Shown here one piece after another: positions 8,812 through 26,675 of a DNA stretch of 64,000 nucleotides. The translations under genes were made by a program, and so were the position numbers. How positions within the stretch are numbered: position 1 is the stretch's first letter; the number at the start of each line of letters is the position of its first letter. The notes under the pieces are model-generated. The model searched no databases. It had not been told where the DNA came from and saw nothing but the letters and a program-made list of their open reading frames with translations. The DNA is from a virus, in IMG/VR virus record IMGVR_UViG_3300005253_000144, positions 1-64,000 of that record; one strand, 5' to 3'.

Positions 8812-9444
8812 TTATGTAATTAAGGATGGGTCATAGCGGATGACGGTTGCAAACTTTTGTGCATCGGGTAGTGTATCATCCGCAAAAGCTCGAATCATAA
8901 TGCCGCCAATAGTCCATTTATCACCGCTGGCCATGTTGATACTAAACGCATCTACGAATTGGGCACGGTGAAGCGTGAAACTGACATAATCCGCCGCGGC
9001 TTCATCTGTGACCTTGGGCAACCACAATCGATAATAAGTAGAATTATCAATTGTGCCAATTCCCATCTTCTCAAAGGGAGCGCTTGTAGTAACAGGACTC
9101 GCCTTAAGAACGGGGCTGATGGTGGTTAGCGGGAACAGTGTTGAAAGCGTGATTGAAAATTCCAGGAAATTACGCTTCTGGATTACACCAATATCTCCTG
9201 ACCTATCACATCGAATAGCATTTACGGTGAGGTCTTCGCCGAGACTCACATCCTGATAACAGGCCAATTCAATAGCCGGTTCTGTGGCTGTTCCGCTCAT
9301 TCCCCAATAAAACCCGTCCCCATCAGGGTTATTGAGTGGTGAGGCCACAATGTCTTGATAATAAATCCACGGCGCGCCTTCAGGGAAAACGGTCGTGGTT
9401 TGTTGGGTAATACTACCCTCAGGTGTTCCGGTAATAAGTGCCAT
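8812..9444 (-). CDS. Major tail (tube) protein
   Basis: 210 aa beta-rich protein upstream of chaperones/TMP; RBS GGAGG upstream. Confidence 0.7.
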   Translation of the reverse strand: MALITGTPEGSITQQTTTVFPEGAPWIYYQDIVASPLNNPDGDGFYWGMSGTATEPAIELACYQDVSLGEDLTVNAIRCDRSGDIGVIQKRNFLEFSITLSTLFPLTTISPVLKASPVTTSAPFEKMGIGTIDNSTYYRLWLPKVTDEAAADYVSFTLHRAQFVDAFSINMASGDKWTIGGIMIRAFADDTLPDAQKFATVIRYDPSLIT

Positions 9445-11032: not shown

Positions 11033-11033
11033 A

Positions 11034-11537
11034 TTACTTCAACTGTGCCTTAATGCTGGTCAGCACTAATCGGACACCATCCGCTTTTGTCTCGTGTGCA
11101 GCCGGACGTAGATAGGGGTGCGCTGGAACTCCTGGATGGAAAACACGTTTGAAAAAATGCTTTCCGCTTTCTGGGTCATACGCAGAAATATCCTTTGGTC
11201 CGCCCGGCCAGAAAAAGGCTAAAGACTTTTTATTCTTCGCCTCTATTAATATAAGTTCGCGCTCTGATGGGTCAGATGCATGAATGCCCGAACCCAATTC
11301 GTGTGCGCGCGCATATACCAGATTAGAGCCAATCAAAATCGCCCAGATATATGGCTGGATTCCAAAAGGAATTCCCTGCGTAATGCTTCGTGCCAGACGC
11401 CCAGTTTGAACGGGCGCCTTTAATGAAGCGCGCTGCGCCGCAAGTTCTCCCCATGCTAATACACCTTTAAATACAGCGATATTTATAAGTTGTTTTAGCT
11501 TTTCTGGACCATGCTTGCGTGTGACTTTTGCGGCCAT
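11034..11537 (-). CDS. HK97 gp10-like tail completion/neck protein
   Basis: 'APVQTGRLARSI', 'YARAHELG', 'HPYLRPA' motifs; likely start at MAAKVTRK rather than 11645. Confidence 0.75.
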   Translation of the reverse strand: MAAKVTRKHGPEKLKQLINIAVFKGVLAWGELAAQRASLKAPVQTGRLARSITQGIPFGIQPYIWAILIGSNLVYARAHELGSGIHASDPSERELILIEAKNKKSLAFFWPGGPKDISAYDPESGKHFFKRVFHPGVPAHPYLRPAAHETKADGVRLVLTSIKAQLK

Positions 11538-11539
11538 TT

Positions 11540-11917
11540 TTATTGAACGCTCCGATTCGTCTGATACCGTTCCAGCGTTAATTGGATTAGAGAAATTTTC
11601 TGCGATATTGGCATTTGAGGGTAGTTTACTTTGATAATTCTCCAACGCGTATCTAAATAAGGATGATAAGACGGTGCGGTTATTAACAATTCATCCCGCT
11701 CCAAAATTATCATTGTCGCAGGGCGTACTAATGCGCGCCCCATTTTTTTTGTTTCAATACCTTGCTGTAGCAAAAGCATACTCGGCGGCATCTCCTGCAA
11801 TGTAGTAGCCACACACTCATAAACAGCCGTTCCTGTTAGTACCGCGCCACCTACATCGTCATCCGCAGCTTGATTCATGCGGATAATTGTTGTCTGCACA
11901 TTCATTCCAGCAGGCAT
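11540..11917 (-). CDS. Head closure / head-tail adaptor protein
   Basis: 125 aa beta-rich protein between the connector and the gp10-like gene. Confidence 0.55.
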   Translation of the reverse strand: MPAGMNVQTTIIRMNQAADDDVGGAVLTGTAVYECVATTLQEMPPSMLLLQQGIETKKMGRALVRPATMIILERDELLITAPSYHPYLDTRWRIIKVNYPQMPISQKISLIQLTLERYQTNRSVQ

Positions 11918-11936
11918 TTAGTATTTCTCCTATCTT

Positions 11937-12644
11937 CTAACCACGCATAGATGGAACTGCCAGAGTCCGCTTCGGCTTTTTTAAATGCTTTATGGTTTTG
12001 GCGACCATGTTCGCACGCGCGCTTTGCCCCCAGGGGGTCATAATGAGGTCTCGGCGAGACTCAGAATAGCCCAATGACCCATAGCTTTTTATTCCTGGGT
12101 CACCCGGTCCACCTTCATTTGCGGCGGGGTCAACAATCTCATTAAGCATGATTTCTGCGCCGAAGGCAAGCCCCATGTGTAAACTGGTATCGTCTGCAAT
12201 TGTTCCCGTAGAAAAGCCTGCCCGATACACTACTTCCATCTGAAATGGAACTACTGCATAGCCACAGGCACTTATTAGTGCGCCCTCCACTGGCTGTAAG
12301 AACACATAACCAAATCCGCTATCAAGTATTATTCCACAACCATCATTTCTTGTTAATGTACAGGAGCAACCACTATTCTTTGAAATAGCTGTTACCGCAT
12401 CAATACTTGTGATGCGCGCCTCAGGCAACGGCAAAGTATGCGACCCAAGCGGCCACGAAAAGGTACCTGTAATAACGGTATCTAAAATTGGCGACCCAGC
12501 AAAATCGATGAAACGCTGCTCAGACCATAGATATGCGGCCTGTCTTTGTTCTACCGTTCCTACATCGATACAACCAGGCACATAGGCAAAGAATACATCA
12601 TCCGTTAAAACAACAGGCGACGTGTGATACCACAGTGAAGACAT
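11937..12644 (-). CDS. Head-tail connector (adaptor) protein
   Basis: First neck gene; 'EVVYRAGF' and 'KSYGSLGYSES' typical of adaptors. Confidence 0.6.
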   Translation of the reverse strand: MSSLWYHTSPVVLTDDVFFAYVPGCIDVGTVEQRQAAYLWSEQRFIDFAGSPILDTVITGTFSWPLGSHTLPLPEARITSIDAVTAISKNSGCSCTLTRNDGCGIILDSGFGYVFLQPVEGALISACGYAVVPFQMEVVYRAGFSTGTIADDTSLHMGLAFGAEIMLNEIVDPAANEGGPGDPGIKSYGSLGYSESRRDLIMTPWGQSARANMVAKTIKHLKKPKRTLAVPSMRG

Positions 12645-12650
12645 TTTCTA

Positions 12651-12962
12651 TTACTTAAACCTCGATGCCCTGGGGTCATCTGGCGTTATGATGCTGCTAT
12701 TATTACTCTTCATCATCGCTTCTTGGTCTGCCCTTAACAGCATCTTTCTCGCCTCATGTTCCAAATACGCCGAGATAGCAAATAGTTGAAAAGGGGTTAT
12801 CAAATGCATGTCAACACCCACAGGAATTGCTGTGTTGCCAGCAAATCGAATCCTTATTAGGGAATCATCTTTGGCTGGAGTATAGCTGGGATGTAGGCTG
12901 GCCTTTGTAGGTTGGTCATCATTTATGTTATCTTTGTTTGTATTCTTAGTATCATCATCCAT
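12651..12962 (-). CDS. Hypothetical protein
   Basis: ORF translationally coupled to the upstream glycosyltransferase. Confidence 0.55.
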   Translation of the reverse strand: MDDDTKNTNKDNINDDQPTKASLHPSYTPAKDDSLIRIRFAGNTAIPVGVDMHLITPFQLFAISAYLEHEARKMLLRADQEAMMKSNNSSIITPDDPRASRFK

Positions 12963-13906
12963 TATAAATACCTATAAACGTCCCATTCCAAGCCGTTTAC
13001 CCAACGGCCGCGGAATATCTGTTCATTAGCGGCCAAATTAAAACCATCAGAACCAGCTCCCTGAATAATGGAGCCGCCAACAATATGATACGCCTCTGAT
13101 TGAGGAGAGTAAACTACTTTTTTACCATGCGCCCTAGCGTTGAAGCAATAATCCACGTCCTCAAACGTCCCCTTCCCATAACCTTCATGTAGACCGCCTA
13201 TATCAGTCCATAGGCCACGGCGTGTTATGAAACACGACCCGGTTATAGATGCCATTTCCTTGCGGGTATTGACCTTTGGATTATTGCGACTCCAACCCAA
13301 GTAGATATGGATTATCTTCCCTGATATATCAACGGCATGACCCGCATGTTGCACACTTCCGGGCGGACCATGAGGCGAATCCTGTTCAGGAAACAGCAGT
13401 TTTATTCCCACAACGCCTATCTCAGGATTGTCCATTTCATTTATCAAATTGGTAATTGCGCCATTGAGCAGAACAATATCTGCGGAAAGAATAAGGATTA
13501 ATGGTGCTTTCCCCTTGGATACAGCAAAATTAATGCCGCCCGGAAACCCCCTATTCTCTTCTAACCTGACTAATTTATCCGATTTTCTTAATAGCTTTTT
13601 TACTCCCGCGGACTGTGTTTCAGGAGAGATTGTTGTTCCATCATCATTGTTGAATTCGGGCGTGCCGTTATCAAGTACGATAATGTTGTATTCAGGGCTT
13701 CCCCAATCTTTCATACCTGCTTCTATGGATTTTATCGCGCTCTCTGCCAGTGCCCATTCTCCATAAACTGGAACGATAATATCTAAAAGGGGCTGAATAT
13801 AAGGTAACACCTGTGTGTTTTCTGCCAGAGGCGATTCTTGTGGTTTAGCTTGGCTACCACTATGCCTGCGTTTCCTTTTATTCTTCGACTTTTTCTTCTT
13901 CGCCAT
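12962..13906 (-). CDS. Glycosyltransferase family 2 (WbbL/rhamnosyltransferase-like)
   Basis: 'DIIVPVY', 'LDNGT', 'ENRGFPGGIN', 'ITGSCF', 'FEDVDYCF'. Confidence 0.9.
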   Translation of the reverse strand: MAKKKKSKNKRKRRHSGSQAKPQESPLAENTQVLPYIQPLLDIIVPVYGEWALAESAIKSIEAGMKDWGSPEYNIIVLDNGTPEFNNDDGTTISPETQSAGVKKLLRKSDKLVRLEENRGFPGGINFAVSKGKAPLILILSADIVLLNGAITNLINEMDNPEIGVVGIKLLFPEQDSPHGPPGSVQHAGHAVDISGKIIHIYLGWSRNNPKVNTRKEMASITGSCFITRRGLWTDIGGLHEGYGKGTFEDVDYCFNARAHGKKVVYSPQSEAYHIVGGSIIQGAGSDGFNLAANEQIFRGRWVNGLEWDVYRYL

Positions 13907-15224
13907 TTTGGTTTACCTCCGAATTCTCACTAATATCTTCCACGATTGGGGGTACAGGCTGTGGAACGCCTGAGGGTATTGTGCCGATTTGTTGAGCAGT
14001 GTTCTGCACCGGGTTCGCTGCCAGTTTTTCCTTGGCAATTTCCCTGTCAATCACATCCTCCAATAAAATCCCCGCAACATCCCAATTCCTGCCCTCGGCA
14101 TATAGTCTTGCTCTTGTAATAATCTCTGCCAAAGTCGAATTCTTGTTCTTGGTTTCCCAATATTTAATGATTTTTAATAATTGCGCCGCGCCAGCCTCCA
14201 CATCTACATAACTACGCCTCGAATTTCCCCATACATCAATATGCGTGAATTCCACCGGGATAGTAAAACCACGTTCACCATCATAGTTTGTATTTATGCG
14301 CGCTGTTTCCGCATCTTCAAAAATGTGTTCTATAAGAGCGGCGGCGTGGGTGGCAAGAACAGGAACGCCAGCCGCCATCGCTTCAATAGCTGGCATTCCC
14401 AAACCTTCGGCCTTGCTCGTTAGCATAAATAGGTTTGAAAGAGCAACCAGTCGCCACATTTCCGCAAATGAAATACCCCGCTCAAGGCATACAAAATTAC
14501 CTGTCATCCCATATTTTAGGGCAAGGTCATCTAATCTCCAACCCACTGGGGATTCTTTCCTTGTTACCAATATCCAATGAATCCTCGCATATTTTTCGCG
14601 CGCCTTGGCAATAATTTCCATCGTAGCAGATAGGTTTTTGCGTTCCTGATTATCCGCTACTGTGACAATCACGAAATCTTCGTCTTCAAAACCCATTGAC
14701 TTTCTTAGCTGCCTCTTTTCTCCCTCAATCGGCATTCTCCATGCCTTGGTATCTAGGCCAATACGAATATGTTCACATTCAGCCCCCGCATCTTCAAGCA
14801 TATTCTTTCCATGCTCACTAATAACCAATCGAGCGTTCAAATTACCTAGTCCCATCGCCCAGGTCTGGCAAATAGGACCATCTTCAACAGGGAAAATACC
14901 AATATGCGGCACAGGAATCTTTTTCGCATTTGCAATACCAATTTGCAACGGGATATCAAGGGCGATTACAACTGCTTCGACAGGTTCGTTTCTTCCCGAT
15001 ATGCCAAGTTGATGCAAATTATGCATCATGGCCGGGGCGTGAGTCATCCACATATGGGGCTGTACCGGAAGTAGGGAAAAAGGCCAGTGGTGTTCTTCGC
15101 CCGTATATCCAATACCAAGTGCCGTTACTTTTTTGCCACGCGCTACTAATTGATTGCATAGTGCAAGGGCAATGTTCATATACCCGCTCCCCTTTAAATC
15201 CAAATCACTTAAAAATATTATCAT
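13878..15224 (-). CDS. Glycosyltransferase family 4 (GT-B)
   Basis: 'NQERKNL', 'TSKAEGLGMPAIEAMAAGVPV' (E-x7-E motif). Confidence 0.9.
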   Translation of the reverse strand: MIIFLSDLDLKGSGYMNIALALCNQLVARGKKVTALGIGYTGEEHHWPFSLLPVQPHMWMTHAPAMMHNLHQLGISGRNEPVEAVVIALDIPLQIGIANAKKIPVPHIGIFPVEDGPICQTWAMGLGNLNARLVISEHGKNMLEDAGAECEHIRIGLDTKAWRMPIEGEKRQLRKSMGFEDEDFVIVTVADNQERKNLSATMEIIAKAREKYARIHWILVTRKESPVGWRLDDLALKYGMTGNFVCLERGISFAEMWRLVALSNLFMLTSKAEGLGMPAIEAMAAGVPVLATHAAALIEHIFEDAETARINTNYDGERGFTIPVEFTHIDVWGNSRRSYVDVEAGAAQLLKIIKYWETKNKNSTLAEIITRARLYAEGRNWDVAGILLEDVIDREIAKEKLAANPVQNTAQQIGTIPSGVPQPVPPIVEDISENSEVNQNGEEEKVEE

Positions 15225-16279
15225 GCTAATTTACCTCTTTCAAATAATTCTTCCCATCGTTCGGCCACTTTCTCATAGCTGAAACGGCGTTCTGCCCCAA
15301 GCTGCATTCGGGCTTGCTTATCTTGCAAAGATTCCCTGTCCGCCGTTAATGTCTCTATAATTCGATTACTGAACAATTCAATCCATAAATCTGAAGCCGG
15401 GTTGCCGGCAATTATCTGCCCAAACTCATTTGTAGTAGTTAAAGCCCCTCTATCAGACGTTATTGGCAATGCTCCAGCTATTTGACATTCAGCGGCGGAT
15501 ATACAAAATAGTTCATCATAGGTGCATGGGTAACTCAAAATCTCGGCTTGCAGTTGGTGTTTAATCAATTCTTTTCGCGGTATCCGGCCAAGGAAACTGA
15601 CATCCTTTTGTCCCATCCATGCTAGGCGGTGTTTGGTATTATTTGCGCTAGTACTTCCCCATAAACGATAATCACTCGTAATAACAAGGCTGGCATCTGG
15701 CACCTTTTCTTTAATCTGTGGCCATGCGCGTAGTAACTCAGCCAATCCCCGGTCGGGAATACTGCAATAAATTAGGCGATACGCCACCTTCTTAATAACA
15801 TCTTTATTTTCATATTCCCACGCTCTTACCCCTATATCGATATGGCCCATTTTTGTTAGCGGTATTCCATAATGCGCGTGATGATAATTTGTATGGAATG
15901 GCGAAATAGTAACTACATAATCAACTCTTTGGCCCAATTGATGAAAATCTCCAACCGTAAATTGGTCTGTTGACCAAAAGATGGTGCGTTGTTTTGTCGG
16001 AATACGGGTATGGAATACACGCGGGTTTGGGCTACGGAAGATGAGCAAAATATCACGTGGGTGTTCGGTAATGAATTCAGCCAAGGCACGGTAGGCAACC
16101 CCATCATATGTACCAGGATGGTCTGGGTCGTTATATACAGTCACTTCATGACCTCTCTTCGCCAATACCCGCATTAATGACATCATTGCCAATTCTGCAC
16201 CACCAACTCCGCGCCCATCTATAATTGGCGGTGTTACTCCAATGGGACTTCCGTCATTTGCAATCAGATGAATCTTCAT
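15221..16279 (-). CDS. Glycosyltransferase, GT4-like
   Basis: 'GVGGAE', 'SIPDRGL', 'YDELFCISAAECQIAG'. Confidence 0.85.
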   Translation of the reverse strand: MKIHLIANDGSPIGVTPPIIDGRGVGGAELAMMSLMRVLAKRGHEVTVYNDPDHPGTYDGVAYRALAEFITEHPRDILLIFRSPNPRVFHTRIPTKQRTIFWSTDQFTVGDFHQLGQRVDYVVTISPFHTNYHHAHYGIPLTKMGHIDIGVRAWEYENKDVIKKVAYRLIYCSIPDRGLAELLRAWPQIKEKVPDASLVITSDYRLWGSTSANNTKHRLAWMGQKDVSFLGRIPRKELIKHQLQAEILSYPCTYDELFCISAAECQIAGALPITSDRGALTTTNEFGQIIAGNPASDLWIELFSNRIIETLTADRESLQDKQARMQLGAERRFSYEKVAERWEELFERGKLA

Positions 16280-17583
16280 TAAATTTCACTCCTGAAAAAC
16301 CCGATGATTTTATTTGCGGTATAGGTCACCATTTCCGATGTCAGGCCAGGCCAAATACCTACCCAAAATGTATTGTCCGCTATTATGTCTGTGTTGGGCA
16401 CAGTAACGCTTGCATTTATAGCAGAATATGCAGGTTGCTTAAGTAAATTGCCTCCGAATAATCTGCGCGTCCCAATTTTGTGGCTTTCCAAATATTTTGT
16501 CAGTAGCACACAAATATTAGGTTCGCGAACTGTTATAGGAAACCCAAACCAGCTAGGCTCAGAATTTTTTGTCGCGCGTGGCAGATGAATAAATTCCTCA
16601 AGCCCGGATAGTAGCCCATACATTTGTTTAAAATTCTCCCTTCGTTTGGCCACAAATGTTTCTATCCGAAATGTCTGGGCTAATGCAATCGCTCCCTGAA
16701 AATCGGTTGATTTGAGATTGTATCCTATCCGGCTATAAATATATTTATGGTCATAATTATGAAGTTGCGGAAAATCCCATTCAAACCTTTTCCCGCAGGT
16801 GTTATCTTCACCAGTTTTGCACCAGCAATCACGTCCCCAATCACGATAGCTGTTTATCATTTTGTTGACTATTGGTGATTTGGTAAAAACGACCCCACCC
16901 TCACCCGCCGTTATATGATGTGCCGGATATAGTGAGAGAGTTGACATCAATCCAAATGTGCCTGTTAACTTACCTGCATATGTGGACCCAAGCGCATCAC
17001 AATTATCCTCTATTAGATGAATGCCTTTTTCCTTACAAAGAGCCAATACATCTTCGATGGGAAAAGGGTTGCCTAGTGTGTGCGCCATGAATATCCCAAC
17101 CGTATCTTTGTCTACTGCATTAGCAATCATATCAATGGTTGGCACATAGGTTTCAATCTCAACATCCACAAATCGTGGAATGAATCCGTTCTGAATAATA
17201 GGATTTATTGTAGTTGGGAATCCTGCCGCGGCGGTAATGATATTAGACCTGCCCTGTATCCTATCCACAATTTCTTTAAGTGTGGTTATTGCTAGTAGGT
17301 TTGCGCTAGAACCCGAATTGCACATGCTGGCAAATCGCAGCCCCAAATAATCGGCTATTCTTTTCTCAAACTTCTCCACAAATCGCCCCTCAGTAAAATG
17401 CATATCAAACGCGGCCGCAACCGCATTTTCTACTTCTAATCCGCCAACCACCTTGCCGCTTGCCGGAATAGGGGTTAGTCCAGGCTTAAATGATGTGACC
17501 TGCTTTTCAATCAATTTTGATTCACCATATTTATGCGCAAGGGTTTTGATATCAGCTTCTAGGGCTTCATAATTTATCATCAA
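16279..17583 (-). CDS. rfbH: CDP-4-keto-6-deoxyglucose 3-dehydrase (RfbH/DdhC/AscC, DegT fold)
   Basis: 'NSGSSANLLA', 'EDNCDALGS', 'YPAHHITAGEGG' (His in place of the PLP Lys) and Cys cluster 'DWGRDCWC...NTCGKRF'. Confidence 0.9.
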   Translation of the reverse strand: MMINYEALEADIKTLAHKYGESKLIEKQVTSFKPGLTPIPASGKVVGGLEVENAVAAAFDMHFTEGRFVEKFEKRIADYLGLRFASMCNSGSSANLLAITTLKEIVDRIQGRSNIITAAAGFPTTINPIIQNGFIPRFVDVEIETYVPTIDMIANAVDKDTVGIFMAHTLGNPFPIEDVLALCKEKGIHLIEDNCDALGSTYAGKLTGTFGLMSTLSLYPAHHITAGEGGVVFTKSPIVNKMINSYRDWGRDCWCKTGEDNTCGKRFEWDFPQLHNYDHKYIYSRIGYNLKSTDFQGAIALAQTFRIETFVAKRRENFKQMYGLLSGLEEFIHLPRATKNSEPSWFGFPITVREPNICVLLTKYLESHKIGTRRLFGGNLLKQPAYSAINASVTVPNTDIIADNTFWVGIWPGLTSEMVTYTANKIIGFFRSEI

Positions 17584-17589
17584 ATATCT

Positions 17590-17964
17590 CTATATTAGAT
17601 TATAGATAACTAAGAATTCTTCGATTGAAAGGCTATGAAATCCATCATAAGACATGGCCAATTGAGCAACATCGCCAGTAATGAAATAGGCTTCTGATAT
17701 ATCACCATGTTCTATGGCTGCACGTTGCGCCATTTCCGTTATTGCAAAGGACAGAGATTGATAATCACCGCCGAGAACTAATGTATAGTCTGGATGGAAT
17801 TCGGCTAAAATCCGATTCATTATTTTCGTGCTCTCCAACGCATCCGCATTTGATTCCATTATCACTGCCACAAGATTTCCCTCAGCCCGTAACTGCTCAA
17901 TAAGAATAACTATGAGGGGCATCCCTTTCAGAGCCGAGCTATCAAAAATATAAAGATTGGCCAT
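17590..17964 (-). CDS. Hypothetical protein in glycan cluster
   Basis: ORF tightly packed in the operon; weak HAD-like N-terminus (YIFD). Confidence 0.55.
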   Translation of the reverse strand: MANLYIFDSSALKGMPLIVILIEQLRAEGNLVAVIMESNADALESTKIMNRILAEFHPDYTLVLGGDYQSLSFAITEMAQRAAIEHGDISEAYFITGDVAQLAMSYDGFHSLSIEEFLVIYNLI

Positions 17965-17969
17965 ATCAG

Positions 17970-18467
17970 CTATTCCGAAATTTCCTTATTATATTCGCCA
18001 AGGCTGAGCGGGAAATTTAATAATGCCTCAAGCGGAGTGCGAATAATTTCATCTGGGTCATGCGGAATGCTTGCAATATTACAAATTATGGCTGAATTAA
18101 CGCTACCTTCTTTTGCCCTAAAAGCATTCCATATGTAGGGTGGGATAGTTAATAATACATAATGCGGACCATCCGCAGCAAGTTCAATTTTCATGGGTGT
18201 TCCAAAAGTTATGCCCCCAAAACGTTCATCGTATAAAAATATTGTGGCGCGTCCGCTTACGCACAGATAGCGTAACGTCATTTTTGTATGTAAGTGCCAT
18301 CCTTTGATAATCCCTGGATTTACCTCAGAGAAATAAATCTCGCCAATTTTGTTGTCTGCGGAAATGAACCATTCCTCATCAGTTCTTAATCCATGCTTTA
18401 CCGAACCGCGCAAATCGCGAATCACATCTCTTTTTATGGTTTCAACCCCTTGAATGATGTGCACCAT
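17970..18467 (-). CDS. NDP-4-keto-6-deoxyhexose epimerase (RmlC-like cupin)
   Basis: 'DLRG', 'IKGWHLH', 'LTIPPYIWNAF'. Confidence 0.85.
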   Translation of the reverse strand: MVHIIQGVETIKRDVIRDLRGSVKHGLRTDEEWFISADNKIGEIYFSEVNPGIIKGWHLHTKMTLRYLCVSGRATIFLYDERFGGITFGTPMKIELAADGPHYVLLTIPPYIWNAFRAKEGSVNSAIICNIASIPHDPDEIIRTPLEALLNFPLSLGEYNKEISE

Positions 18468-18469
18468 AT

Positions 18470-19483
18470 CTATTTGCTCCTAAAATAACTTTCATACCAA
18501 GCTATTGTGTTTAATAAATTTTTTGTGAATAGTCCCGAATTATCAGGACGTATCCAGCCCAAATCTTTCTTGGCCTTATCATCTCTAATAATTATTCTGC
18601 TACTCTCGCCTTTAGCGGTATTCAATATCTGCAATTGTAAATCTTCTCGCTTCATCAGACTCAATAATTGCTTCACCAAATCCCCTACCGTCCACCATAA
18701 ACCGCCAAAATTATATATTTCCGCAGTGTCGATATTGGGGAGTTGTTCATGAAGGCTATTGGCAAGAAGTAAATATGCATGAATGGCGGCTTCAACATTT
18801 ATATATTCCCGCACAGGCATACCATCGCTCCGGATTTGTGGACTCCGGTCATGTAGGATATCCCGAATTGTCTCTGGAATAAGCCGCTTAAAGTTCAAAT
18901 CTCCAGGTCCAAATATATTTGCCATGCGAGCAATGGTTATGGAAAGCTTATAGTGATTTGCATAGGATTGCGCAGCCAAATCCGCTGCGGCCTTGCTCGT
19001 GTCATAGGGATGTCCGGGATTTGGTATTAGCGTTTCCCTCAAACCGCCATGCGCCATTTCAGAACGGTCTTGCTTGCCATATGCTTTATCAGAGGAAGCG
19101 ATGATAATCTTGGCATTGGGAGCAATCCTTTTGGTCGCCTCTAAAAGATTAACAGTTCCCATAACGTTTGTGTCCCATGTCTGCCGCGGGACCTGCGCCG
19201 CCTCTGTCACTTGCGTAATCGCGGCCAAATGAAATATATAGTCGGGTTCAGCGATGGTAATTGCGCGTTCAATCTGTTCATAGTTCCGAATGTCGGCCTG
19301 GATTGTTCTTACCTGTAACGGCCAATCATTAGTAGGCGCATAGACTTGGCGCACGAAATCCGCATTATGCACTATGGCAAACAGATTTTCTGTTGCGTGA
19401 TTTAGCGCATACATTAAATGGCTACCCACAAAGCCATAAGCACCAGTAACTAGAATTCTTTGGTTCGTAAATATTGATAGCAT
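18470..19483 (-). CDS. rfbG: CDP-glucose 4,6-dehydratase-like extended SDR
   Basis: 'VTGAYGFVGS', 'FHLAA', 'SSDKAY', 'YDTSK', 'NIFGPGD'; adjacent to rfbF. Confidence 0.8.
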   Translation of the reverse strand: MLSIFTNQRILVTGAYGFVGSHLMYALNHATENLFAIVHNADFVRQVYAPTNDWPLQVRTIQADIRNYEQIERAITIAEPDYIFHLAAITQVTEAAQVPRQTWDTNVMGTVNLLEATKRIAPNAKIIIASSDKAYGKQDRSEMAHGGLRETLIPNPGHPYDTSKAAADLAAQSYANHYKLSITIARMANIFGPGDLNFKRLIPETIRDILHDRSPQIRSDGMPVREYINVEAAIHAYLLLANSLHEQLPNIDTAEIYNFGGLWWTVGDLVKQLLSLMKREDLQLQILNTAKGESSRIIIRDDKAKKDLGWIRPDNSGLFTKNLLNTIAWYESYFRSK

Positions 19484-19486
19484 TGA

Positions 19487-20299
19487 TTACCTTCCTTCCA
19501 GCCAAGGCTTTCCTGCCTTATAATCGCGTTCTAGTTGTCGGCGATTTCGCGGCGTATCCATCATCTGCCAATAGCCATTATGGATACATGCGCCTAGTTT
19601 ATTTTGTTCGGCCAAATTGGGCAATATATCAAATTCAAAACGCACACTCTCATTCCTAATGGTATCTAATAGTTTTGAATCAACAATGTAGAAACCGCCA
19701 TTAATATAGGCATTATCAATCTGCCGTTTTTCTGCAAACCTAGTTACATAGCCCGATTGTAATTCCAGAACACCAAAGCGTGCTGGAGGATGTACAGCCG
19801 TTAATGTAACCCACGTGTCTTTTTGAGATTGACAAAGCATATTGTGGAATACTTCTAATTTCGGCAAATTTATGTTTCCTAATCCGTCTCCATAAGTTAG
19901 AAAGAACCTTTCGCCCTCATCAAAATGATTTGCCAATCGCAATAGCCGCCCACCGGTTGGCGTTTCCAAACCAGTGTTGACTATTGTCAAATTTTCTACC
20001 CCGGCAGCCCTTTGATTATATCTTTCTCCCCATTCTCGAATAATTTCGTGTTTAAATCCAGCCGCAATGATAAACTCGCGATATCCCTGCTTGGTATAAA
20101 TATTAATGATTAGTTCAAGTATTGGGATTCCTCCGATGGTGACCATCGGCTTAGGAATCAACCCCTTTGTCTCTTCTTGCAGGCGCGTTCCCTTACCCCC
20201 GGCAAATATAACTACCTTACGAACAGAATCAATTTGGTTTACCATTTGTTTATTTCCTTGGCTATTTTTCATAGCCCATAATTCGCATTGCTTCAACAA
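19487..20299 (-). CDS. rfbF: Glucose-1-phosphate cytidylyltransferase
   Basis: 'AGGKGTRLQEET...PKPMV', 'TGGRL', 'LTYGDG', 'INGGF', 'WQMMDT'; true start may be slightly downstream. Confidence 0.9.
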   Translation of the reverse strand: MLKQCELWAMKNSQGNKQMVNQIDSVRKVVIFAGGKGTRLQEETKGLIPKPMVTIGGIPILELIINIYTKQGYREFIIAAGFKHEIIREWGERYNQRAAGVENLTIVNTGLETPTGGRLLRLANHFDEGERFFLTYGDGLGNINLPKLEVFHNMLCQSQKDTWVTLTAVHPPARFGVLELQSGYVTRFAEKRQIDNAYINGGFYIVDSKLLDTIRNESVRFEFDILPNLAEQNKLGACIHNGYWQMMDTPRNRRQLERDYKAGKPWLEGR

Positions 20300-21011
20300 T
20301 CCCGTTATCTTTCCAGAACGTCTTTATATGCTTGGCTTTAAAATGGTTTTTCCAGTCACCAATTTCCCCCTTGCGAAACGTTGGAGATTCATTAGGCTTA
20401 ATTCTTTGTGCCAATGTTGTAGATGATTCGTTACGAAACACATCAGGCGCGAACTTTATCATTTCTTGGCAAGTCGCCAGCGGAACTGTGCGAAAACTCT
20501 CGTATTTTAGCGGCAGGATATTCGCATCTTTGTAATCATTCGCACGACTAATCCAGGGCGTTATTTCTGCCAACCGTTCCCCCAGACCACATATTATATC
20601 CATCATCGGGTCAGGACGTGTGTGAAGAAGCTGGCCGGAAACCCTAAAATTTTGTGCTGAAGAAGCAAAGAATTTCTTAACATGGAACATATGGGCCACT
20701 ACGCAATCGCGCGGGTCTCGTATAAGTAATATTGTTTTGATTCCCATTTTCTCCAATAGATAATAAATGGTGTCGTTCCAGGGTACATGCCCAACACATC
20801 GCCTTTTATTCGTAAGCGGTTGAAAGCTTTCCCAAAGGTCTTCGCGTATAGCATCGATATCCCTTTTAATGCCCCCAACGTCTGTTTCATACCTACGGAT
20901 ATGCCAATCCGCCCTTACGATTTGCAAGAGCATATTAGTGCCTGAATTAGGGAATGAGTTGACCAATAAGTGTTGCATTATTATTCCACGGTTTGCATAG
21001 TCGAATGGCAA
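20262..21011 (-). CDS. PAPS-dependent sulfotransferase
   Basis: 5'-PSB-like 'SFPNSGTN', 3'-PB 'IRDPRDCVV', 'KYES', C-terminal 'FRKGEIGDWKNHF'. Confidence 0.85.
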   Translation of the reverse strand: MPFDYANRGIIMQHLLVNSFPNSGTNMLLQIVRADWHIRRYETDVGGIKRDIDAIREDLWESFQPLTNKRRCVGHVPWNDTIYYLLEKMGIKTILLIRDPRDCVVAHMFHVKKFFASSAQNFRVSGQLLHTRPDPMMDIICGLGERLAEITPWISRANDYKDANILPLKYESFRTVPLATCQEMIKFAPDVFRNESSTTLAQRIKPNESPTFRKGEIGDWKNHFKAKHIKTFWKDNGIVEAMRIMGYEK

Positions 21012-21652
21012 ATATACCGATATTCCACAATCGGGGGGTGCCGTGGGTCAGGAATAGTCACCTCTGGATTATGTACTTTATATATTTCAGCATTCATTTT
21101 AAGTGTGTCAATCCCAATAGGAAACCATCCTGCTCGCTTTAAATACCATTCTATTTGCACGTTATTCATCATTGAATAGTGGTTTCTGCCCGCATAGGTC
21201 CAATATTCAGGAGCGGGAGCAATTAGATATAACCATTTAATTGAAACCCGCTGCCATTCCATTAAAGTAATTAGCGGAAAGGGAGAATGTTCTAGGACGT
21301 GTCGGGCAAATAACAAATCAAATGAATTGTCAGGAAATGGCAAAAATGTCATGTCGGCTTCATGCACATTTAACCCCACCGCCTTGGCAATTGCGTAATC
21401 CTCCCCGCGTGTAACTCCAGTCCAATCATGTAGTCCAACTTGCGCAAATAATGGTTTACAAAAACCAGCCGCACAGCCAATGTCCAAAACATTTTTAGTT
21501 GATTCTTTAGCGGCGGTCTCGTAATATCTATTAATGGCGTCCTCTGCCCAGGCGCGGTGACCAGCGTCTTCTGGCTGGGGATAAATATCCTGTGCCAATT
21601 CTGATAAATACGCATCGAAATGTTTATATTTATTATTCAAATCGTTTGGCAT
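20981..21652 (-). CDS. Class I SAM-dependent methyltransferase
   Basis: 'VLDIGCAAG', 'DMTFLPFPDNSFDL', 'HVLEH'. Confidence 0.9.
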   Translation of the reverse strand: MPNDLNNKYKHFDAYLSELAQDIYPQPEDAGHRAWAEDAINRYYETAAKESTKNVLDIGCAAGFCKPLFAQVGLHDWTGVTRGEDYAIAKAVGLNVHEADMTFLPFPDNSFDLLFARHVLEHSPFPLITLMEWQRVSIKWLYLIAPAPEYWTYAGRNHYSMMNNVQIEWYLKRAGWFPIGIDTLKMNAEIYKVHNPEVTIPDPRHPPIVEYRYICHSTMQTVE

Positions 21653-22436
21653 AGTCTGGCAATTCCTTTAGTGGTCCAGCGAATTCTAGTGGGTGTTTTG
21701 TGTGCTCTCCCTGAACCGCATGATAAAATTCCAACTTAGTTTTGGTTGTTTCTTCATCTGGCCATGTGTAATGTAATAAACATACAGGCGGTTCAATGTA
21801 AAAGCGATTTTCACGTTCTGGAATATTCTCTATAGTCATACCGCCGTCTTCATCACCAATCTCTCTTGCCCGAACATCTACATCTGAGTGCCACGCCCAC
21901 ATACTTTGGCCGGGTTCGTTTAATAAGGGGAAGTATTTATCTAGCCCCCAAAGATACAGGCGATAAAGAAAGACTGCCTCATAATTATTATAATGAGCAG
22001 TTTCAATTAGCAGACGCCCCTGCTGCTTTAGTGCATAATTGGGAAGACTGTCACAATCGTCAAATATTATCCAATCAGCACCCTCCTCTTCAATTGCCCA
22101 ATCAATTAAGAAGTTCACATGCCTACCCTGTGGATTAAAATGATGACCATTCTTTTCTACGATGGTCGGGAATTCTCTTACTTCAACAAAGTCATACAAT
22201 GATGCAAACTTAACGGTATCGTCCGTGCTCCCTCCATCTGCAACTAATATTTTATCAGCCCAAACATAAGAACTGCAAAAAGGCTCAATATATTTTTCCT
22301 CGTTCATTGTTCTGACGATAACGACAATTTTTAGTTTATTTCCGTTTGATATAACTTGTTTGGTGTTTGGCATTGGACACACCTTTATTAAATAATTCAG
22401 ACGTATAAAAATAACACACAACCAACTGCTTGCCAT
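21633..22436 (-). CDS. Glycosyltransferase family 2
   Basis: 'NEEKYI', 'ADGGSTDDT', 'WIIFDDCD'; likely start at MPNTKQ (~22373). Confidence 0.85.
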   Translation of the reverse strand: MASSWLCVIFIRLNYLIKVCPMPNTKQVISNGNKLKIVVIVRTMNEEKYIEPFCSSYVWADKILVADGGSTDDTVKFASLYDFVEVREFPTIVEKNGHHFNPQGRHVNFLIDWAIEEEGADWIIFDDCDSLPNYALKQQGRLLIETAHYNNYEAVFLYRLYLWGLDKYFPLLNEPGQSMWAWHSDVDVRAREIGDEDGGMTIENIPERENRFYIEPPVCLLHYTWPDEETTKTKLEFYHAVQGEHTKHPLEFAGPLKELPDYAKRFE

Positions 22437-22821
22437 TATCAGAGATTCCCATTTCCATAGCTTGTGCGCCTGTAATTAAGACCGCCGGAGAGCCGCAAGT
22501 ACACATTGCGAACCACCTGCCGCGCCCACCTTCTCCCTGTTCTTCATAAAGTGGGTCAGCATAGATAAAATGCTCCCCATGATATTCAGCACATTTCACG
22601 GCTTCGGTCTGTGCAGGGCGGTTACCATCGCTGGGAACTGTAAAATAGATATACTCTTGCTTCTCTACCTTATGGCCGCTGTCCAAAACGGCGGATTTAG
22701 GGTCGCCGCGGCGTTTGATTAGATTAAGTCTAGTAGTCTTTAAGTCAAATCCATTATTGTCGCCTATGGTTTTCATAGCAAATCCATCTTTTCTAACAAT
22801 GTTTGAATACGTGCATCCCAA
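22336..22821 (-). CDS. Hypothetical Cys/His-containing protein
   Basis: ORF in the cluster; 'MCTCGS'; likely start ~22776. Confidence 0.55.
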   Translation of the reverse strand: MGCTYSNIVRKDGFAMKTIGDNNGFDLKTTRLNLIKRRGDPKSAVLDSGHKVEKQEYIYFTVPSDGNRPAQTEAVKCAEYHGEHFIYADPLYEEQGEGGRGRWFAMCTCGSPAVLITGAQAMEMGISDNGKQLVVCYFYTSELFNKGVSNAKHQTSYIKRK

Positions 22822-23681
22822 GTATGCGGCTCTACAGCTCGGCGTGCTGCAAAGCCCAGGCTTTTGGCCCTCTCTGTATCTTGCATTATCTCTTGAAACT
22901 TTTCTACTGCATCGGACACATTGTCAAACCCAATAAAATGTTCGCCATCAATGAAAAGTTCCATGAGGTCGGGAGTCCGATTCAGCAAAGGAACAATACC
23001 GAAGGCCATGAGTTCATATACTCGCGCTGTCGTATCCTTTAGGCTGGAATGATTGAATCCTACTTTTGTGTTGTGATAAATTTCTCTGGCATCATCATAG
23101 GCCAATCCTATATCAAAATAAGTGGCATAATTTTGGCTTTTTAGCAGATTAAAGAACTCGATTCTTTGCGTATATTGTAGTCCGATAAGACTCGCATCTA
23201 TCTCCCTTTCTGCCCATGGCTTGGGCGTTTGGGCATGATAAATCGGGTCATAGGCATAGGGTAGCCATACGTCATTTGGTTTCATATAGGGCTTTTGCAT
23301 ACAAAAGAATTTTGTCGCGCGCCCGCGTAGTTCATCATAATTCAATACATGTGGGTCGGTCCCAACAACTGCATATGGAGCATTAGTTGGGGCAGCAGGC
23401 GAAGTTAATCCGGCGTTGACCTCCAACCATAAATCGGGGGTCCAGGGGCATAGATTTTCAAGCATTTGGTAATTGATTAATGGCGGACTTGATAGCGGCA
23501 ATGGATAATCTGGCGTGTAAACATATTCGGGGGGGAGCACCATGCCCCCGCGCCACGGAATATTGCGACCAGTGAAAGGACCAGCAGTCCATATTTCTAC
23601 GTCTTTCCGGCGTAGCAACGCTTCAAGGAAATATCTTCCCATTGCTACTGGATAAAAAATAGTTGTGAAGGCAATTCTCAT
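22773..23681 (-). CDS. Glycosyltransferase, CgeB/Glyco_trans_1_2-like
   Basis: 'WLPYAYDP', 'KVGFN', 'ARVYELMAFG', 'HTWDARI'. Confidence 0.8.
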   Translation of the reverse strand: MRIAFTTIFYPVAMGRYFLEALLRRKDVEIWTAGPFTGRNIPWRGGMVLPPEYVYTPDYPLPLSSPPLINYQMLENLCPWTPDLWLEVNAGLTSPAAPTNAPYAVVGTDPHVLNYDELRGRATKFFCMQKPYMKPNDVWLPYAYDPIYHAQTPKPWAEREIDASLIGLQYTQRIEFFNLLKSQNYATYFDIGLAYDDAREIYHNTKVGFNHSSLKDTTARVYELMAFGIVPLLNRTPDLMELFIDGEHFIGFDNVSDAVEKFQEIMQDTERAKSLGFAARRAVEPHTWDARIQTLLEKMDLL

Positions 23682-24043
23682 GGCGCCAGATATAGGACTA
23701 TCCAGATTGACAATAAATGTAATGCTTGGTCATCCATCGCTTTTACAAAAAGATAATCATCTTTCTTGAATAGGCGATTCCATAAACTACCTAATTGAAA
23801 GCCATCAATTAATAGGTGTGTAATTGCTATCATTATGATTTGGCCGAGGGAAAATCCGAAGACTACAAATGGAAGTGCCGTAACCAATACATGTACGACG
23901 AGAACTTTCCGGCTTTCCCTCTTGTTCTTTGTCATCCAGGAATTTTGTAAGAGCCAATCTCCCAGCAAGTGTGCGACAAGGGCATTGATAAACATCGATT
24001 CTTCTCCTTTTATGGTTTTTCTGGAACATTTGGTAGCCCCCAC
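23678..24043 (-). CDS. DUF3307 family membrane protein
   Basis: 'AHLLGDWLLQ', 'THLLID', 'DQALHL'; likely start at MFINAL (~23995). Confidence 0.8.
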   Translation of the reverse strand: MGATKCSRKTIKGEESMFINALVAHLLGDWLLQNSWMTKNKRESRKVLVVHVLVTALPFVVFGFSLGQIIMIAITHLLIDGFQLGSLWNRLFKKDDYLFVKAMDDQALHLLSIWIVLYLAP

Positions 24044-24798
24044 TTTTCAGCGAAGACCGCACGCATTTTTATGGTTTGTTCTCTTCGTGCCGTTGAATAT
24101 CCTATCGTTCCCGCGCCTAAATGTTTTATTGGAAGTGTTGGAAAATCTTGGACTATATTTAATGGGACAATCCCAGCATTCTTTTCTGACAACAACTCTA
24201 CCTCGCGCGCGAGGTCGATGTCTTCATAGTCAAATGGGTAGTAACGCGTATCAAACCCCTTAATTGCTCGCCATGTTTTTTGTGTTAGCGCAAGCCAATA
24301 TCCTTCGCCATATGTAACGACAATGTTTGCAAAAGAATTCCAGCCTGAATTCCAATCCACCTTTCTATGGCACGCCAATCCACCGGCCTTGCAGTGCTCA
24401 TAAATTCTCAGCCCCACTTCTCCCCCCAAGAAATCGCCAAGCATCACTACATCATTTGAATACAAAATCAATACCTCACCCTCTGCTATTTTTGCGGCAT
24501 GATTAAATCCGCTCCCAAACCCATTATTCTCCATAACCCTATATGCCCTTAAATTCGGATATTCTTGGGCATTATGAACAAACATCTCTGAGATTTCAGA
24601 GCCAATACTTCCATTATCAATAAGAATGATTTCTGTGTCTTTGCGCGGAACTAGATATGAAATTGCCTCAGCCATGCGCTGGCGCGCTAGAGCAATTTTG
24701 TTGTAATTTAATATTAGAACTGAGTATTTATACCCGTGGGTTGAGGGGTTCATGAACAGCGCGCTCCTGGCTGTGATATTCCTCCAAAGCCTCTTCAA
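24010..24798 (-). CDS. Glycosyltransferase family 2
   Basis: 'SVLILNYN', 'IDNGS', 'NNGFGSGFN', 'GFDTRY..DYEDIDL'. Confidence 0.85.
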   Translation of the reverse strand: MKRLWRNITARSALFMNPSTHGYKYSVLILNYNKIALARQRMAEAISYLVPRKDTEIILIDNGSIGSEISEMFVHNAQEYPNLRAYRVMENNGFGSGFNHAAKIAEGEVLILYSNDVVMLGDFLGGEVGLRIYEHCKAGGLACHRKVDWNSGWNSFANIVVTYGEGYWLALTQKTWRAIKGFDTRYYPFDYEDIDLAREVELLSEKNAGIVPLNIVQDFPTLPIKHLGAGTIGYSTARREQTIKMRAVFAEKWGLPNVPEKP

Positions 24799-25567
24799 CT
24801 TTAAGAATTGGCAAGCCTAAACTTTTTGCCAATTCTATTGATAGACCTGCGTTTCGAGGTCGTGGAGCCGCGCCTTTAATTTTGTTCGTTGCTAATATAA
24901 GATTGTGGTCGTAATCAAATTTTTTCGCTATCAGCCTTGCAAATTCATATCGCGAAAGGATTGATTCGCCAGCAATATGTAACAGCCCTATTCTACTCTT
25001 TTTCGTAGCCAATTGCAATAGCGCATCTGCCAATGATGGAATATAGGTGGGATTTCCATAAAGGTTTTTAGGCATTTCTATTGGCTTATTGAGGGCAAGC
25101 ATTTCTCGGACAGCCCGCACAAAATCTATGCGTGAGCCATGGCCAAAGAGGTCTAGTGTTCGTACAACACAGGTTGGATTGCGAATATTGGCAGCTTGCT
25201 CTCCGCCAAACTTTGACCACCCATATTCGTTCAGTGGGTCCGGCTTATCATTTTCCGAATAATTCCCCTTCTCCCCATTAAATACATAGCCTGTCGATAT
25301 GTGAATGAAAAAGCCCAAAAATTCTTGGCGCAGAATACCTACACCACGATGATTAGAACTAAATAGGGCATCCTTCTCTGCCTCCTTCTCCGCATCATCA
25401 ACGGCTGTATATGCCGCGCAGTTTATTAATACATCAATGCTTTCCCGCTCCAACGCATCCCTAACCGCTTCACGGTCATCGATACGCATTTCAAGCGGGA
25501 CACACCCGCGTTTAATTAACTCACTGCCTAGCCGCCCATTTGGGCCAGTAACCCCTATCTTCATCAA
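24728..25567 (-). CDS. NDP-4-keto-sugar reductase (RmlD-like)
   Basis: 'VTGPNGRLG', 'INCAAYTAVDDAE', 'HISTGYVFNG', 'YGWSK', 'PRP'. Confidence 0.9.
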   Translation of the reverse strand: MMKIGVTGPNGRLGSELIKRGCVPLEMRIDDREAVRDALERESIDVLINCAAYTAVDDAEKEAEKDALFSSNHRGVGILRQEFLGFFIHISTGYVFNGEKGNYSENDKPDPLNEYGWSKFGGEQAANIRNPTCVVRTLDLFGHGSRIDFVRAVREMLALNKPIEMPKNLYGNPTYIPSLADALLQLATKKSRIGLLHIAGESILSRYEFARLIAKKFDYDHNLILATNKIKGAAPRPRNAGLSIELAKSLGLPILKVEEALEEYHSQERAVHEPLNPRV

Positions 25568-26353
25568 TCAGTTCTTTGAAGAGGCTTCGCGAATCCGCTG
25601 AATGCGCGGGGATGCGGGCGGCAAATCTTCACTACCACTTACTACATTTTCAACTGGTAGCCAATCTCCGGGGACACTCCCAACCTGATATGTGAATTCA
25701 CCCAACTTGGTCTTACCCGATAATACATGCTCATCGGTATCTGGATTGTTTATCATAATGCTAACGTCAGAGAATTCACCACCCGGAGGGGCAGAGATAT
25801 TTTCTTCAATTAAGAAATCCATTAAATCGGCGTCAAGACCGGCTTCATCTTCGGCTTCAGGTTCGGCGTCAGGTTCAGCTTCAATTTCGACCTCGGCTTC
25901 GGCCCCCGGTTCGGCTTCAGGTTCGGCGTCAGGTTCAGCTTCAATTTCGACCTCGGCTTCGGCCTCCGGTTCGGCTTCAGGTTCGGCGTCAGGTTCAGTT
26001 TCAATTTCGACCTCGGCTTCGGCCCCCGGTTCGGCTTCAGGTTCGGCGTCAGGTTCAGCTTCAATTTCGGCCTCTGGTTCGGCCTCCGGTTCGGCTTCAG
26101 GTTCGGCGTCAGGTTCAGTTTCAATTTCGACCTCGGCTTCGGCCCCCGGTTCGGCTTCAGGTTCGGCCTCTGGCTCAACCTCGGCCTCTGGCTCAACCTC
26201 GGCTTCTGGCTCAACCTCGGCTTCGGCCTCCGGTTCGGCTTCAGGTTCGGCGTCTGGCTCAACAGCACCCTCTGGTGTGGTTCCATCCATGCTAACGGGA
26301 AGTTCTTCCGTATCTTCGCTTTCTTCGGTTACATCTTTATCTTCATCAGCCAT
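25568..26353 (-). CDS. Highly acidic Glu/Pro/Ala repeat protein
   Basis: RBS GGAGA upstream; ([20 protein letters not shown])n. Confidence 0.75.
25850..26255. repeat. Tandem repeat with a 60 bp period (~5 copies) plus shorter 18 bp units
   Basis: Lines 25861-26160 are near-identical 60-mers (gttcggcgtcaggttcag[c/t]ttcaatttcg...). Confidence 0.95.
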
Positions 26354-26378: not shown

Positions 26379-26675
26379 TTAACGTCCGCCGCCGTTTGTC
26401 CAGCGGCGCACATCATTTTCATTTGCCAATACGATTATACCGGGCCTTTTCTCACCACAACAACCGCCTTTGGTAGCCAATGCGCAACCCATATCCTCTG
26501 GGGGTATCCAGGCCATGCTTATATTAGCTCTTATATTGAAAATATGGGTCAGCTTTTCCCCCGTGCCATTACACTGAATAGAAACGCGCTGTTGGCGTCT
26601 ATACTTTAATGCAACATTGCCATCCTCGTTTACAATGGCGTCATCTGGAATAATACTTGCTGATAACAAAGCCAC
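26379..26675 (-). CDS. Hypothetical protein with CCG motif
   Basis: ORF downstream of the capsid gene; 'GGCCGEK'. Confidence 0.6.
   Translation of the reverse strand: MALLSASIIPDDAIVNEDGNVALKYRRQQRVSIQCNGTGEKLTHIFNIRANISMAWIPPEDMGCALATKGGCCGEKRPGIIVLANENDVRRWTNGGGR

Follow-up and report, generated by a model that had tools for sequence, protein, structure and literature searches.

Why does a tailed phage carry a block of sugar and glycosyltransferase genes in the middle of the operon that builds its particle, and what is decorated by these enzymes? The question is raised by a locus in the IMG/VR record IMGVR_UViG_3300005253_000144, a linear phage record of 102,174 bp with an estimated completeness of 91%. 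Here, we analyze its first 64 kb (positions 1 to 64,000, called the window in the following), in which 16 co-oriented open reading frames (ORFs) lie between the capsid gene and the neck genes at 12962-25567 (-). Near-identical DNA is found in marine-sediment metagenomes of two studies, with no RNA run among the sequencing runs listed, and the record is that of an uncultured marine-sediment phage. Gene content, position and distribution of this island among related phages suggest, with a probability that we put at roughly 0.6, that it is a cytoplasmic, late-expressed glycosylation system decorating the phage's own particle.

Family assignment with Pfam and NCBIfam profiles, PDB sequence matches and PHROG confirmed the gene content that the initial annotation, made without database searches, had proposed for all 16 ORFs. 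They comprise six glycosyltransferases (GTs), five nucleotide-sugar enzymes, a sulfotransferase, a methyltransferase, a DUF3307 protein and two unassigned proteins. The island belongs to one long minus-strand operon which runs from the terminase gene via two large head genes, the capsid gene and three small genes to the island and further to the neck and tail genes. Within the island, neighbouring genes either overlap or are no more than 6 nt apart, and the island edges are similarly tight, with a gap of 0 between the gene of an acidic protein and the first sugar gene and an overlap of 1 between the last GT and the next gene. This arrangement points to translational coupling of the island with the structural genes at either edge. 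A scan for promoters and terminators gave sites at chance frequency. The GC content of the island is 43.1% vs 44.5% in the rest of the record, and the complete span from capsid to neck measures 14.5 kb in the window.

Does the cluster keep this place between capsid and neck genes in related contigs? A scan of IMG/VR yielded 41 related loci, each of which was searched with all proteins of the window; the survey set is formed by the 27 loci whose sequence continues for at least 7 kb beyond the capsid gene (55-74% identity of the capsid protein), a few near-identical duplicate contigs included. The check gave a clear answer, as the island skeleton is found between capsid and neck genes in 27/27 surveyed loci. 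GT2c is present in 26-27 and the CgeB-like GT in 25-27 of the 27, downstream of the capsid gene and on the same strand, and all loci that reach the neck genes end with the order GT4b-GT4a-GT2a-neck. The shortest islands (L055, L049, L037, L048 and L031) extend over about 7.5-9.5 kb and contain mainly the GT core; zero sugar-supply genes were seen in L049, L037 and L031. Islands of other relatives comprise over 25 genes vs 16 in the window. The closest full genomes, G001 and G002, possess syntenic islands of ~17.6 and ~25 kb, respectively, with 37-60% protein identity and additional genes. In G003, whose capsid protein shows merely 46% identity, the interval comprises ~37 kb and has the same four GT types ahead of the neck genes. 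Its sugar set differs and includes an HldE-like kinase/nucleotidyltransferase, a B12-radical S-adenosylmethionine (SAM) enzyme, a CmcI-like methyltransferase as well as additional GT4s. The rank correlations between pairwise identities of GTs and capsid proteins are weak for the GTs and for the structural control alike (rho 0.14-0.56). The locus is composed of a conserved GT core (GT2c, CgeB-like GT, GT4b, GT4a, GT2a and often GT2b) and a swappable middle with supply and tailoring genes. From the shared position in 27/27 loci together with the similar GC content it follows that the morphogenesis module contains the island ancestrally and at a fixed place; a chimeric insertion is excluded.

Five genes of the island define the sugar that is offered to the GTs in this phage; together they are predicted to specify a cytidine diphosphate (CDP)-3,6-dideoxyhexose. 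The putative glucose-1-phosphate cytidylyltransferase (NTP_transferase family; 19487..20299 (-)) is clearly nearest to Salmonella RfbF (PDB 1TZF, E 4.6e-50 vs 5.5e-16 for the next match), and TIGR02623 is its best-scoring model, though with 212 bits below the cut-off of 300. For the nucleoside diphosphate (NDP)-glucose 4,6-dehydratase, a member of the short-chain dehydrogenase/reductase family at 18470..19483 (-), models for CDP- and deoxythymidine diphosphate (dTDP)-linked substrates score alike (TIGR02622, 165 bits; TIGR01181, 153 bits), both below cut-off, and the PDB matches include both types; it is assigned to CDP by its context. The third gene (DegT family; 16279..17583 (-)) had been described as aminotransferase-like and has to be renamed: it encodes the E1 enzyme RfbH, i.e. 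the CDP-4-keto-6-deoxy-D-glucose 3-dehydrase, and not a transaminase. It scores 546.6 bits with NF011936 (cut-off 423), matches PDB 3BCX with E 1.3e-127 (3BCX/3BB8 ~1e-127), has His in place of the Schiff-base Lys of transaminases (YPAHHIT-GEGG) and keeps the iron-sulfur motif C-x-C-x7-C. The remaining two genes encode an RmlC/FdtA-like cupin epimerase or isomerase at 17970..18467 (-), with weak matches to PF05523 and PF00908 and with PDB 3EJK ("dTDP sugar isomerase", E 1.5e-15), and an RmlD-like NDP-4-keto-6-deoxyhexose 4-reductase at 24728..25567 (-), which matches PF04321 with 172 bits and TIGR01214 with 159 bits (below the cut-off of 224) and is found in 18 relatives. If the cupin epimerizes C5, a step taken over from the known asc pathway, the product would be an ascarylose-type L-sugar.

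This set corresponds to the asc/rfb pathway of Yersinia pseudotuberculosis and Salmonella (E1 3BCX/3BB8, RfbF 1TZF), which likewise combines a cytidylyltransferase, a 4,6-dehydratase, an iron-sulfur E1 with His for Lys and RmlC-/RmlD-like finishing enzymes. In contrast with the bacterial version, the phage genes are located outside of an O-antigen locus, without Wzx, Wzy and WbaP, and the E3 reductase (AscD/RfbI; Fer2 domain) is absent from this phage and three relatives (G000-G003). As no E3 is encoded, the pathway must borrow a host electron donor; 3'-phosphoadenosine-5'-phosphosulfate (PAPS) and SAM are also supplied by the host. The initial annotation had considered the locus self-contained and able to make its own rare sugar. 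Both statements hold in part: the five pathway enzymes are there, with the electron supply of E1 left to the host, and the phage pathway would indeed make a rare sugar, which is probably a CDP-3,6-dideoxyhexose instead of an amino sugar.

All six GTs that could use this sugar are soluble. The core begins with GT2c (GT2 family; 24010..24798 (-); PF00535, E 1e-10) and the CgeB-like GT-B enzyme (Glyco_trans_1_2; 22773..23681 (-); PF13524, 67 bits), a family whose members act on the spore crust according to the Pfam description; the CgeB-like GT gave no match in 50,697 cultured phage records. GT2b (21633..22436 (-)) has a GT2 match below the Pfam cut-off. A profile built from 11 sequences confirms its GT-A fold, with GmaR as best solved relative (E 3.6e-8) followed by SunS-type enzymes. 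GmaR is the flagellin O-linked N-acetylglucosamine transferase of Listeria, and SunS-type enzymes are peptide S-glycosyltransferases. At the other end of the island are located GT4b (15221..16279 (-); PF00534 and PF13439), which is found ahead of GT4a-GT2a-neck wherever the end of a relative's locus is visible, GT4a (13878..15224 (-); PF00534, 53.9 bits), whose gene order is kept in relatives, and GT2a (GT2 family; 12962..13906 (-); PF00535, 43.6 bits), the last gene before the neck, with 36% identity to the G003 homolog that directly precedes the neck genes there. The profiles of GT2c and GT2a match many unrelated GT-A structures and no acceptor is identified thereby; in general, GT-A and GT-B folds are uninformative on the acceptor. 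Two tailoring enzymes complete the set. A SAM-dependent methyltransferase (Methyltransf_11; 20981..21652 (-); PF08241, 43 bits) has homologs in ~11 related loci. The PAPS-type sulfotransferase (Sulfotransfer_1; 20262..21011 (-); PF00685, 57.9 bits), with the motifs PNSGTN and RDPRD in its translation, is a rare accessory enzyme with a single weak homolog (24%) among the relatives, in L029.

On the basis of these family assignments the following reaction sequence can be proposed. Glucose-1-phosphate and cytidine triphosphate would be converted to CDP-3,6-dideoxyhexose by phage enzymes in the order cytidylyltransferase, 4,6-dehydratase, E1 (which would draw its electrons from a reductase of the host), cupin epimerase and RmlD-like 4-reductase. 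The soluble GT core may then assemble an oligosaccharide in the cytoplasm, without lipid carrier or export, using Ser/Thr residues of capsid, neck or tail proteins as direct acceptors, before the methyltransferase and, in this phage, the PAPS sulfotransferase would tailor the glycan. A lineage-wide GT core combined with swapped supply and tailoring genes would lead to clade-specific coats, as in the fibrils of Megavirinae.

A candidate attachment signal was looked for in the structural proteins, with expectations derived from within-protein shuffles. The tripeptide [S/T]-G-[S/T] occurs 20 times in the structural proteins of the window vs 7.8 expected (2.6-fold, p about 0.001), and the same holds for the structural proteins of G001 (24 vs 5.7) and G002 (31 vs 7.6). 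Lower counts were obtained for the island enzymes of the window (5 vs 3.1 expected) and for the non-structural ORFs downstream of the tail genes in G001 (3 vs 2.5) and G002 (3 vs 3.7), and the motif S-G-E is not enriched (3 vs 1.8 expected). Much of the excess resides in a distal tail protein at 1-1624 (-), which is cut by the start of the record. Its homologs in G001 and G002 (811 and 824 aa; L062:9260-11695 (+) and L063:9237-11711, reverse strand) contain 16-17 tripeptides, mostly inside a repeated module of ~35 aa that ends with SG(S/T)YAxVxI. The excess of [S/T]-G-[S/T] is consistent with an attachment signal and does not count as evidence for one.

How well, then, is decoration of the virion supported? 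In its favour is a GT core that is universal, position-fixed and coupled to head and neck genes. Auxiliary metabolic genes (AMGs) are usually patchy, and the universality of the core in this lineage is therefore counted for a virion target. Among the GTs themselves, the relationship of GT2b with GmaR and of another GT with the spore-crust family CgeB points in the same direction, as do the solubility of all six GTs and the lack of polytopic proteins and priming transferases. Several observations weigh against it. The G002 island includes a LytR-CpsA-Psr (LCP) family lipoprotein with a lipobox signal (lipoprotein signal peptide; L015:12862-13860 (-)) next to an M23+SH3 peptidase (L015:13877-15532 (-)), and two genes of the sulfatase family are found in the G003 interval besides PhnD/PhnE transporter parts. 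With such envelope- and uptake-type cargo in the interval of relatives, position alone is no proof of a virion target; the capsid-neck interval also acts as a hot-spot for cargo. The locus of the window keeps DUF3307, a small membrane protein of 121 aa with hydrophobic segments (23678..24043 (-); PF11750, 50.8 bits); it is the sole membrane protein of the locus and is also encoded in the loci of G001 and G002. A tblastn search with the CgeB-like GT and GT2a against the 50,697 phage records gave no actinophage match. The tripeptide excess is partly found in a repeated tail-fibre module, so that it could be structural. Finally, comparable sugar and GT clusters of T4-like cyanophages are located in hyperplastic regions, and the usual interpretation of them is that they serve the cell surface (PMC1079782).

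The G003 cargo deserves a description of its own. At L022:1614-8633 (+) this relative encodes a B12-binding radical SAM protein, two cytoplasmic sulfatase-family proteins, PhnD-/PhnE-like parts and a CmcI-like sugar O-methyltransferase; these genes might serve phosphonate- or sulfate-related glycan chemistry or be plain cargo.

The most obvious competitor to a glycosylated virion is a remodelled host envelope. In this case the GTs would extend an undecaprenyl-diphosphate-linked or wall-polymer intermediate of the host with the phage-made 3,6-dideoxyhexose, the glycan would be exported by a primer transferase, flippase, polymerase or ligase of the host, and the late change of the cell surface would stop adsorption to debris or superinfection. 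We regard this as rather unlikely, though it accounts for several facts: 3,6-dideoxyhexoses are classic O-antigen sugars (PMC5399914), the G002 and G003 islands carry the exported LCP lipoprotein with the M23+SH3 peptidase and PhnD/PhnE, respectively, DUF3307 is membrane-embedded, and the sugar clusters of cyanomyoviruses have traditionally been interpreted in this way (PMC1079782). The machinery for it is missing from the phage side. A priming transferase, flippase, polymerase and polytopic proteins are all absent from the four complete or near-complete genomes; the hydrophobicity scan of the 102-kb record detected zero ORFs with at least four hydrophobic segments and the Bac_transf priming transferase (PF02397) is absent in the four genomes, which bears out the earlier remark that flippase, polymerase and GtrA/B-type genes are not recognizable. 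Furthermore, genes of the LCP, M23 and Phn type are sporadic and absent from the retrieved flanks of other relatives, which extend at most 10 kb beyond the capsid gene, whereas the GT core is universal. Situated inside the head-neck operon with no promoter signal of their own, the island genes can be expressed only late, and accessory genes that modify a surface rarely form a core that is both universal and fixed in position.

The remaining alternatives are less compatible with the data. Glycosylation of another cytoplasmic or released acceptor, be it a non-virion phage or host protein (such as the acidic repeat protein, acting as a scaffold or decoy), a small molecule or a free polysaccharide, appears improbable. 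The acidic repeat protein and a conserved orphan with a zinc-site-like signature, in or beside the locus, can be quoted for it, as can the fact that GT-A/GT-B folds do not disclose their acceptors; the export or polymerase functions are lacking, nothing specific speaks in favour, and the conserved place beside structural genes is left unexplained. Phage GTs often glycosylate DNA (PMC12619734, citing Pyle 2024), and the enzymes could in principle act on modified bases of the phage DNA. Hypermodification of this kind is very improbable here, and the earlier argument against it, which had relied on the late-operon placement, is strengthened: the thymidylate-synthase/dCMP-hydroxymethylase family (PF00303) is absent in the four genomes, and four DNA methylases are encoded (three N6/N4 and one C5), the C5 enzyme implying ordinary cytosine. 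To our knowledge, no DNA glycan system is as large as six GTs plus a dideoxyhexose pathway. An assembly chimera or a recent host insertion, to which the bacterial type of the enzymes could be ascribed, can practically be dismissed: the same skeleton occurs in 27/27 related loci from many metagenomes, near-identical DNA was recovered from marine-sediment runs of two studies, and both GC content and coupling tie the island to its neighbour genes.

Among known systems, glycosylation of the virion has been described for the mycobacteriophages Corndog (cluster O), Che8 (cluster F) and Myrna, with capsid and tail tube as targets (Freeman et al. 2023 as cited in PMC11600133 and PMC12363180; gene map in PMC4351075). 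There, too, GT and O-methyltransferase genes are located within the head-morphogenesis operon and the enzymes are soluble. The mycobacteriophages differ in having 2-4 enzymes and no nucleotide-sugar pathway, whereas 16 genes with a CDP-dideoxyhexose pathway and a sulfotransferase are present here, and no sequence homology of the island GTs to the actinophage GTs (Che8, Corndog) was detected. Autonomous clusters of Megavirinae and chloroviruses (PMC10117803, PMC4691112) comprise 6 to 33 genes with nucleotide-sugar pathways and GTs that produce a particle-surface glycan. They share with the island the union of pathway and GTs in one cluster, rare sugars of bacterial type and clade-specific content, but belong to giant viruses of eukaryotes and use amino sugars, in contrast with a tailed phage of ~100 kb whose cluster is fixed between capsid and neck. 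The comparison with giant viruses drawn in the initial annotation is thus valid for own sugar pathways, GTs and clade-specific content (PMC10117803), as an analogy of organization only. In T4-like cyanophages, such as P-SSM2 with its "LPS genes" (lipopolysaccharide; PMC1079782), large clusters with a homolog of the 3-dehydrase, epimerases and several GTs are found; the RfbH homolog of the S-H68 cluster shows 33% identity. These are hyperplastic accessory regions by pstS and hli that are patchy in close relatives, unlike the universal core in the head-neck operon described here.

Cellular systems offer a further parallel. Bacterial islands for cytoplasmic O-glycosylation (flagellin GmaR/Maf; Bacillus spore crust CgeB/Sps) also combine soluble GTs with a self-assembling protein surface and a dedicated sugar pathway, with the likeness to these cellular systems confined to GT folds and families. 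O-antigen and seroconversion loci (Wzx/Wzy, GtrABC) are set apart by the flippase, polymerase, ligase, Gtr membrane proteins and priming phosphoglycosyl transferase that the island does not have, and systems for glycosyl-hypermodification of DNA by the base hydroxymethylase (PF00303) missing from the four genomes, as well as by the presence of a C5 methylase here. By its organization the island may be seen as mycobacteriophage virion glycosylation scaled up, and it also resembles the clusters of Megavirinae. What sets it apart is its own CDP-3,6-dideoxyhexose pathway, the rare sulfotransferase and a set of five or six core GTs shared throughout the lineage.

Two island proteins stand outside of these assignments. 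The orphan of 146 aa (22336..22776 (-)) with a zinc-site-like H/C-x-C/C/H signature is kept in 18/27 surveyed loci. In an alignment of 19 sequences F70, C92, C94, C121 and H138 are invariant and H69 is nearly so, and this conserved Cys/His set looks like a zinc site. Its AlphaFold2 model (predicted local distance difference test, pLDDT, 82.5) gave no fold match in PDB or BFVD, and the sequence no language-model match. The protein of 124 aa at 17590..17964 (-) has neither a family match nor a homolog in relatives; its place is taken in G002 by a HAD phosphatase and an NTP_transf_3 gene.

The upstream edge of the island is formed by the major capsid protein at 27134..28348 (-). Its match to phrog_212 (major head protein, E 7e-5) is weak if taken alone. 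A search of the capsid profile against 1.84 billion representatives recovered distant homologs, four of which pass the Pfam cut-off for the SU10 major capsid protein (SU10_MCP), and the assignment is accepted because of them. An AlphaFold2 model from a 5-sequence alignment has a pLDDT of 28 and no usable fold, and profiles of capsid and neck proteins gave no useful match among PDB sequences. Metagenomes contain at least 1582 homologs of the capsid protein, some on long contigs including one of 110 kb at 85% identity, and zero homologs were found among the 50,697 cultured phage records. Locus L054 has two tandem capsid-like genes (10001-11155 and ~12629 onward) with 71% and 68% identity to the capsid protein of the window. 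A conserved small protein of 98 aa without family match (26379..26675 (-)) has homologs immediately behind the capsid gene in 21 related loci. The hyper-acidic (E-P-E-A)n repeat protein of 261 aa (25568..26353 (-)), with Pfam matches to low complexity only, abuts the first sugar gene, and counterparts with repeats are present in G001 and G002; conceivable roles are those of a scaffold, a decoration protein or an acceptor.

At the downstream edge are the neck/connector genes (235 aa, 125 aa and Neck1/tail completion; 11034..12644 (-)), with a match to phrog_5 (E 1e-9) for 11034-11645. Their homologs are found behind GT2a in G001, G002, G003, L031, L037, L048, L049 and L055. They are followed by a gp17-like tail-completion/LamG fusion, a likely tail tube (8812-9444) with chaperones, the tape measure (5133-7769 (-), in the same operon) and distal tail proteins. 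The fusion protein (389 aa; 9863-11032 (-)) consists of a gp17-like N-terminus and a LamG/ConA-like lectin-fold domain; the homolog in G001 and G002 is short (142-210 aa) and matches only in the N-terminal ~140-146 residues. The large terminase (Terminase_6) is located at 38285-39907 (-). Outside the window, where RtcB (65338-66702), a radical SAM protein and a HerA-like ATPase are also encoded, the three N6/N4 and the one C5 DNA methyltransferase are located at 63701-65332, 90601-93736 and 95035-96312 (L060, L061). Host assignment was attempted from bins of metagenome-assembled genomes that include contigs with capsid homologs (P0078, L057-L059) and was rejected, as Anaerolineae, Woesearchaeota, Bathyarchaeia and Hodarchaeales contradict each other, probably because the phage contigs were binned inconsistently.

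In its widest form, which we put forward tentatively as a possibility, the conclusion reads that a large and widespread lineage of uncultured sediment phages obligately coats its virions with a hypervariable 3,6-dideoxyhexose/methyl/sulfate glycan, built by a conserved set of five to six soluble GTs from swappable supply modules, possibly at [S/T]-G-[S/T]. We know of proven phage virion glycosylation solely in a few mycobacteriophages with two to four enzymes. If the island does coat the particle, an abundant phage lineage of the environment would have complex, self-made glycans as a core element of its structure; they would differ between clades and contain a rare dideoxy sugar along with methyl and sulfate groups. 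With its conserved GT core and swappable supply module, the island is a defined system that can be cloned. Virion coats of this kind would be the phage counterpart of O-antigen diversity and of the glycan toolboxes of giant viruses, and they would bear on particle stability, adsorption and evasion of recognition by hosts and grazers, as well as on the interpretation of the "LPS/AMG" genes of metagenomic phages.

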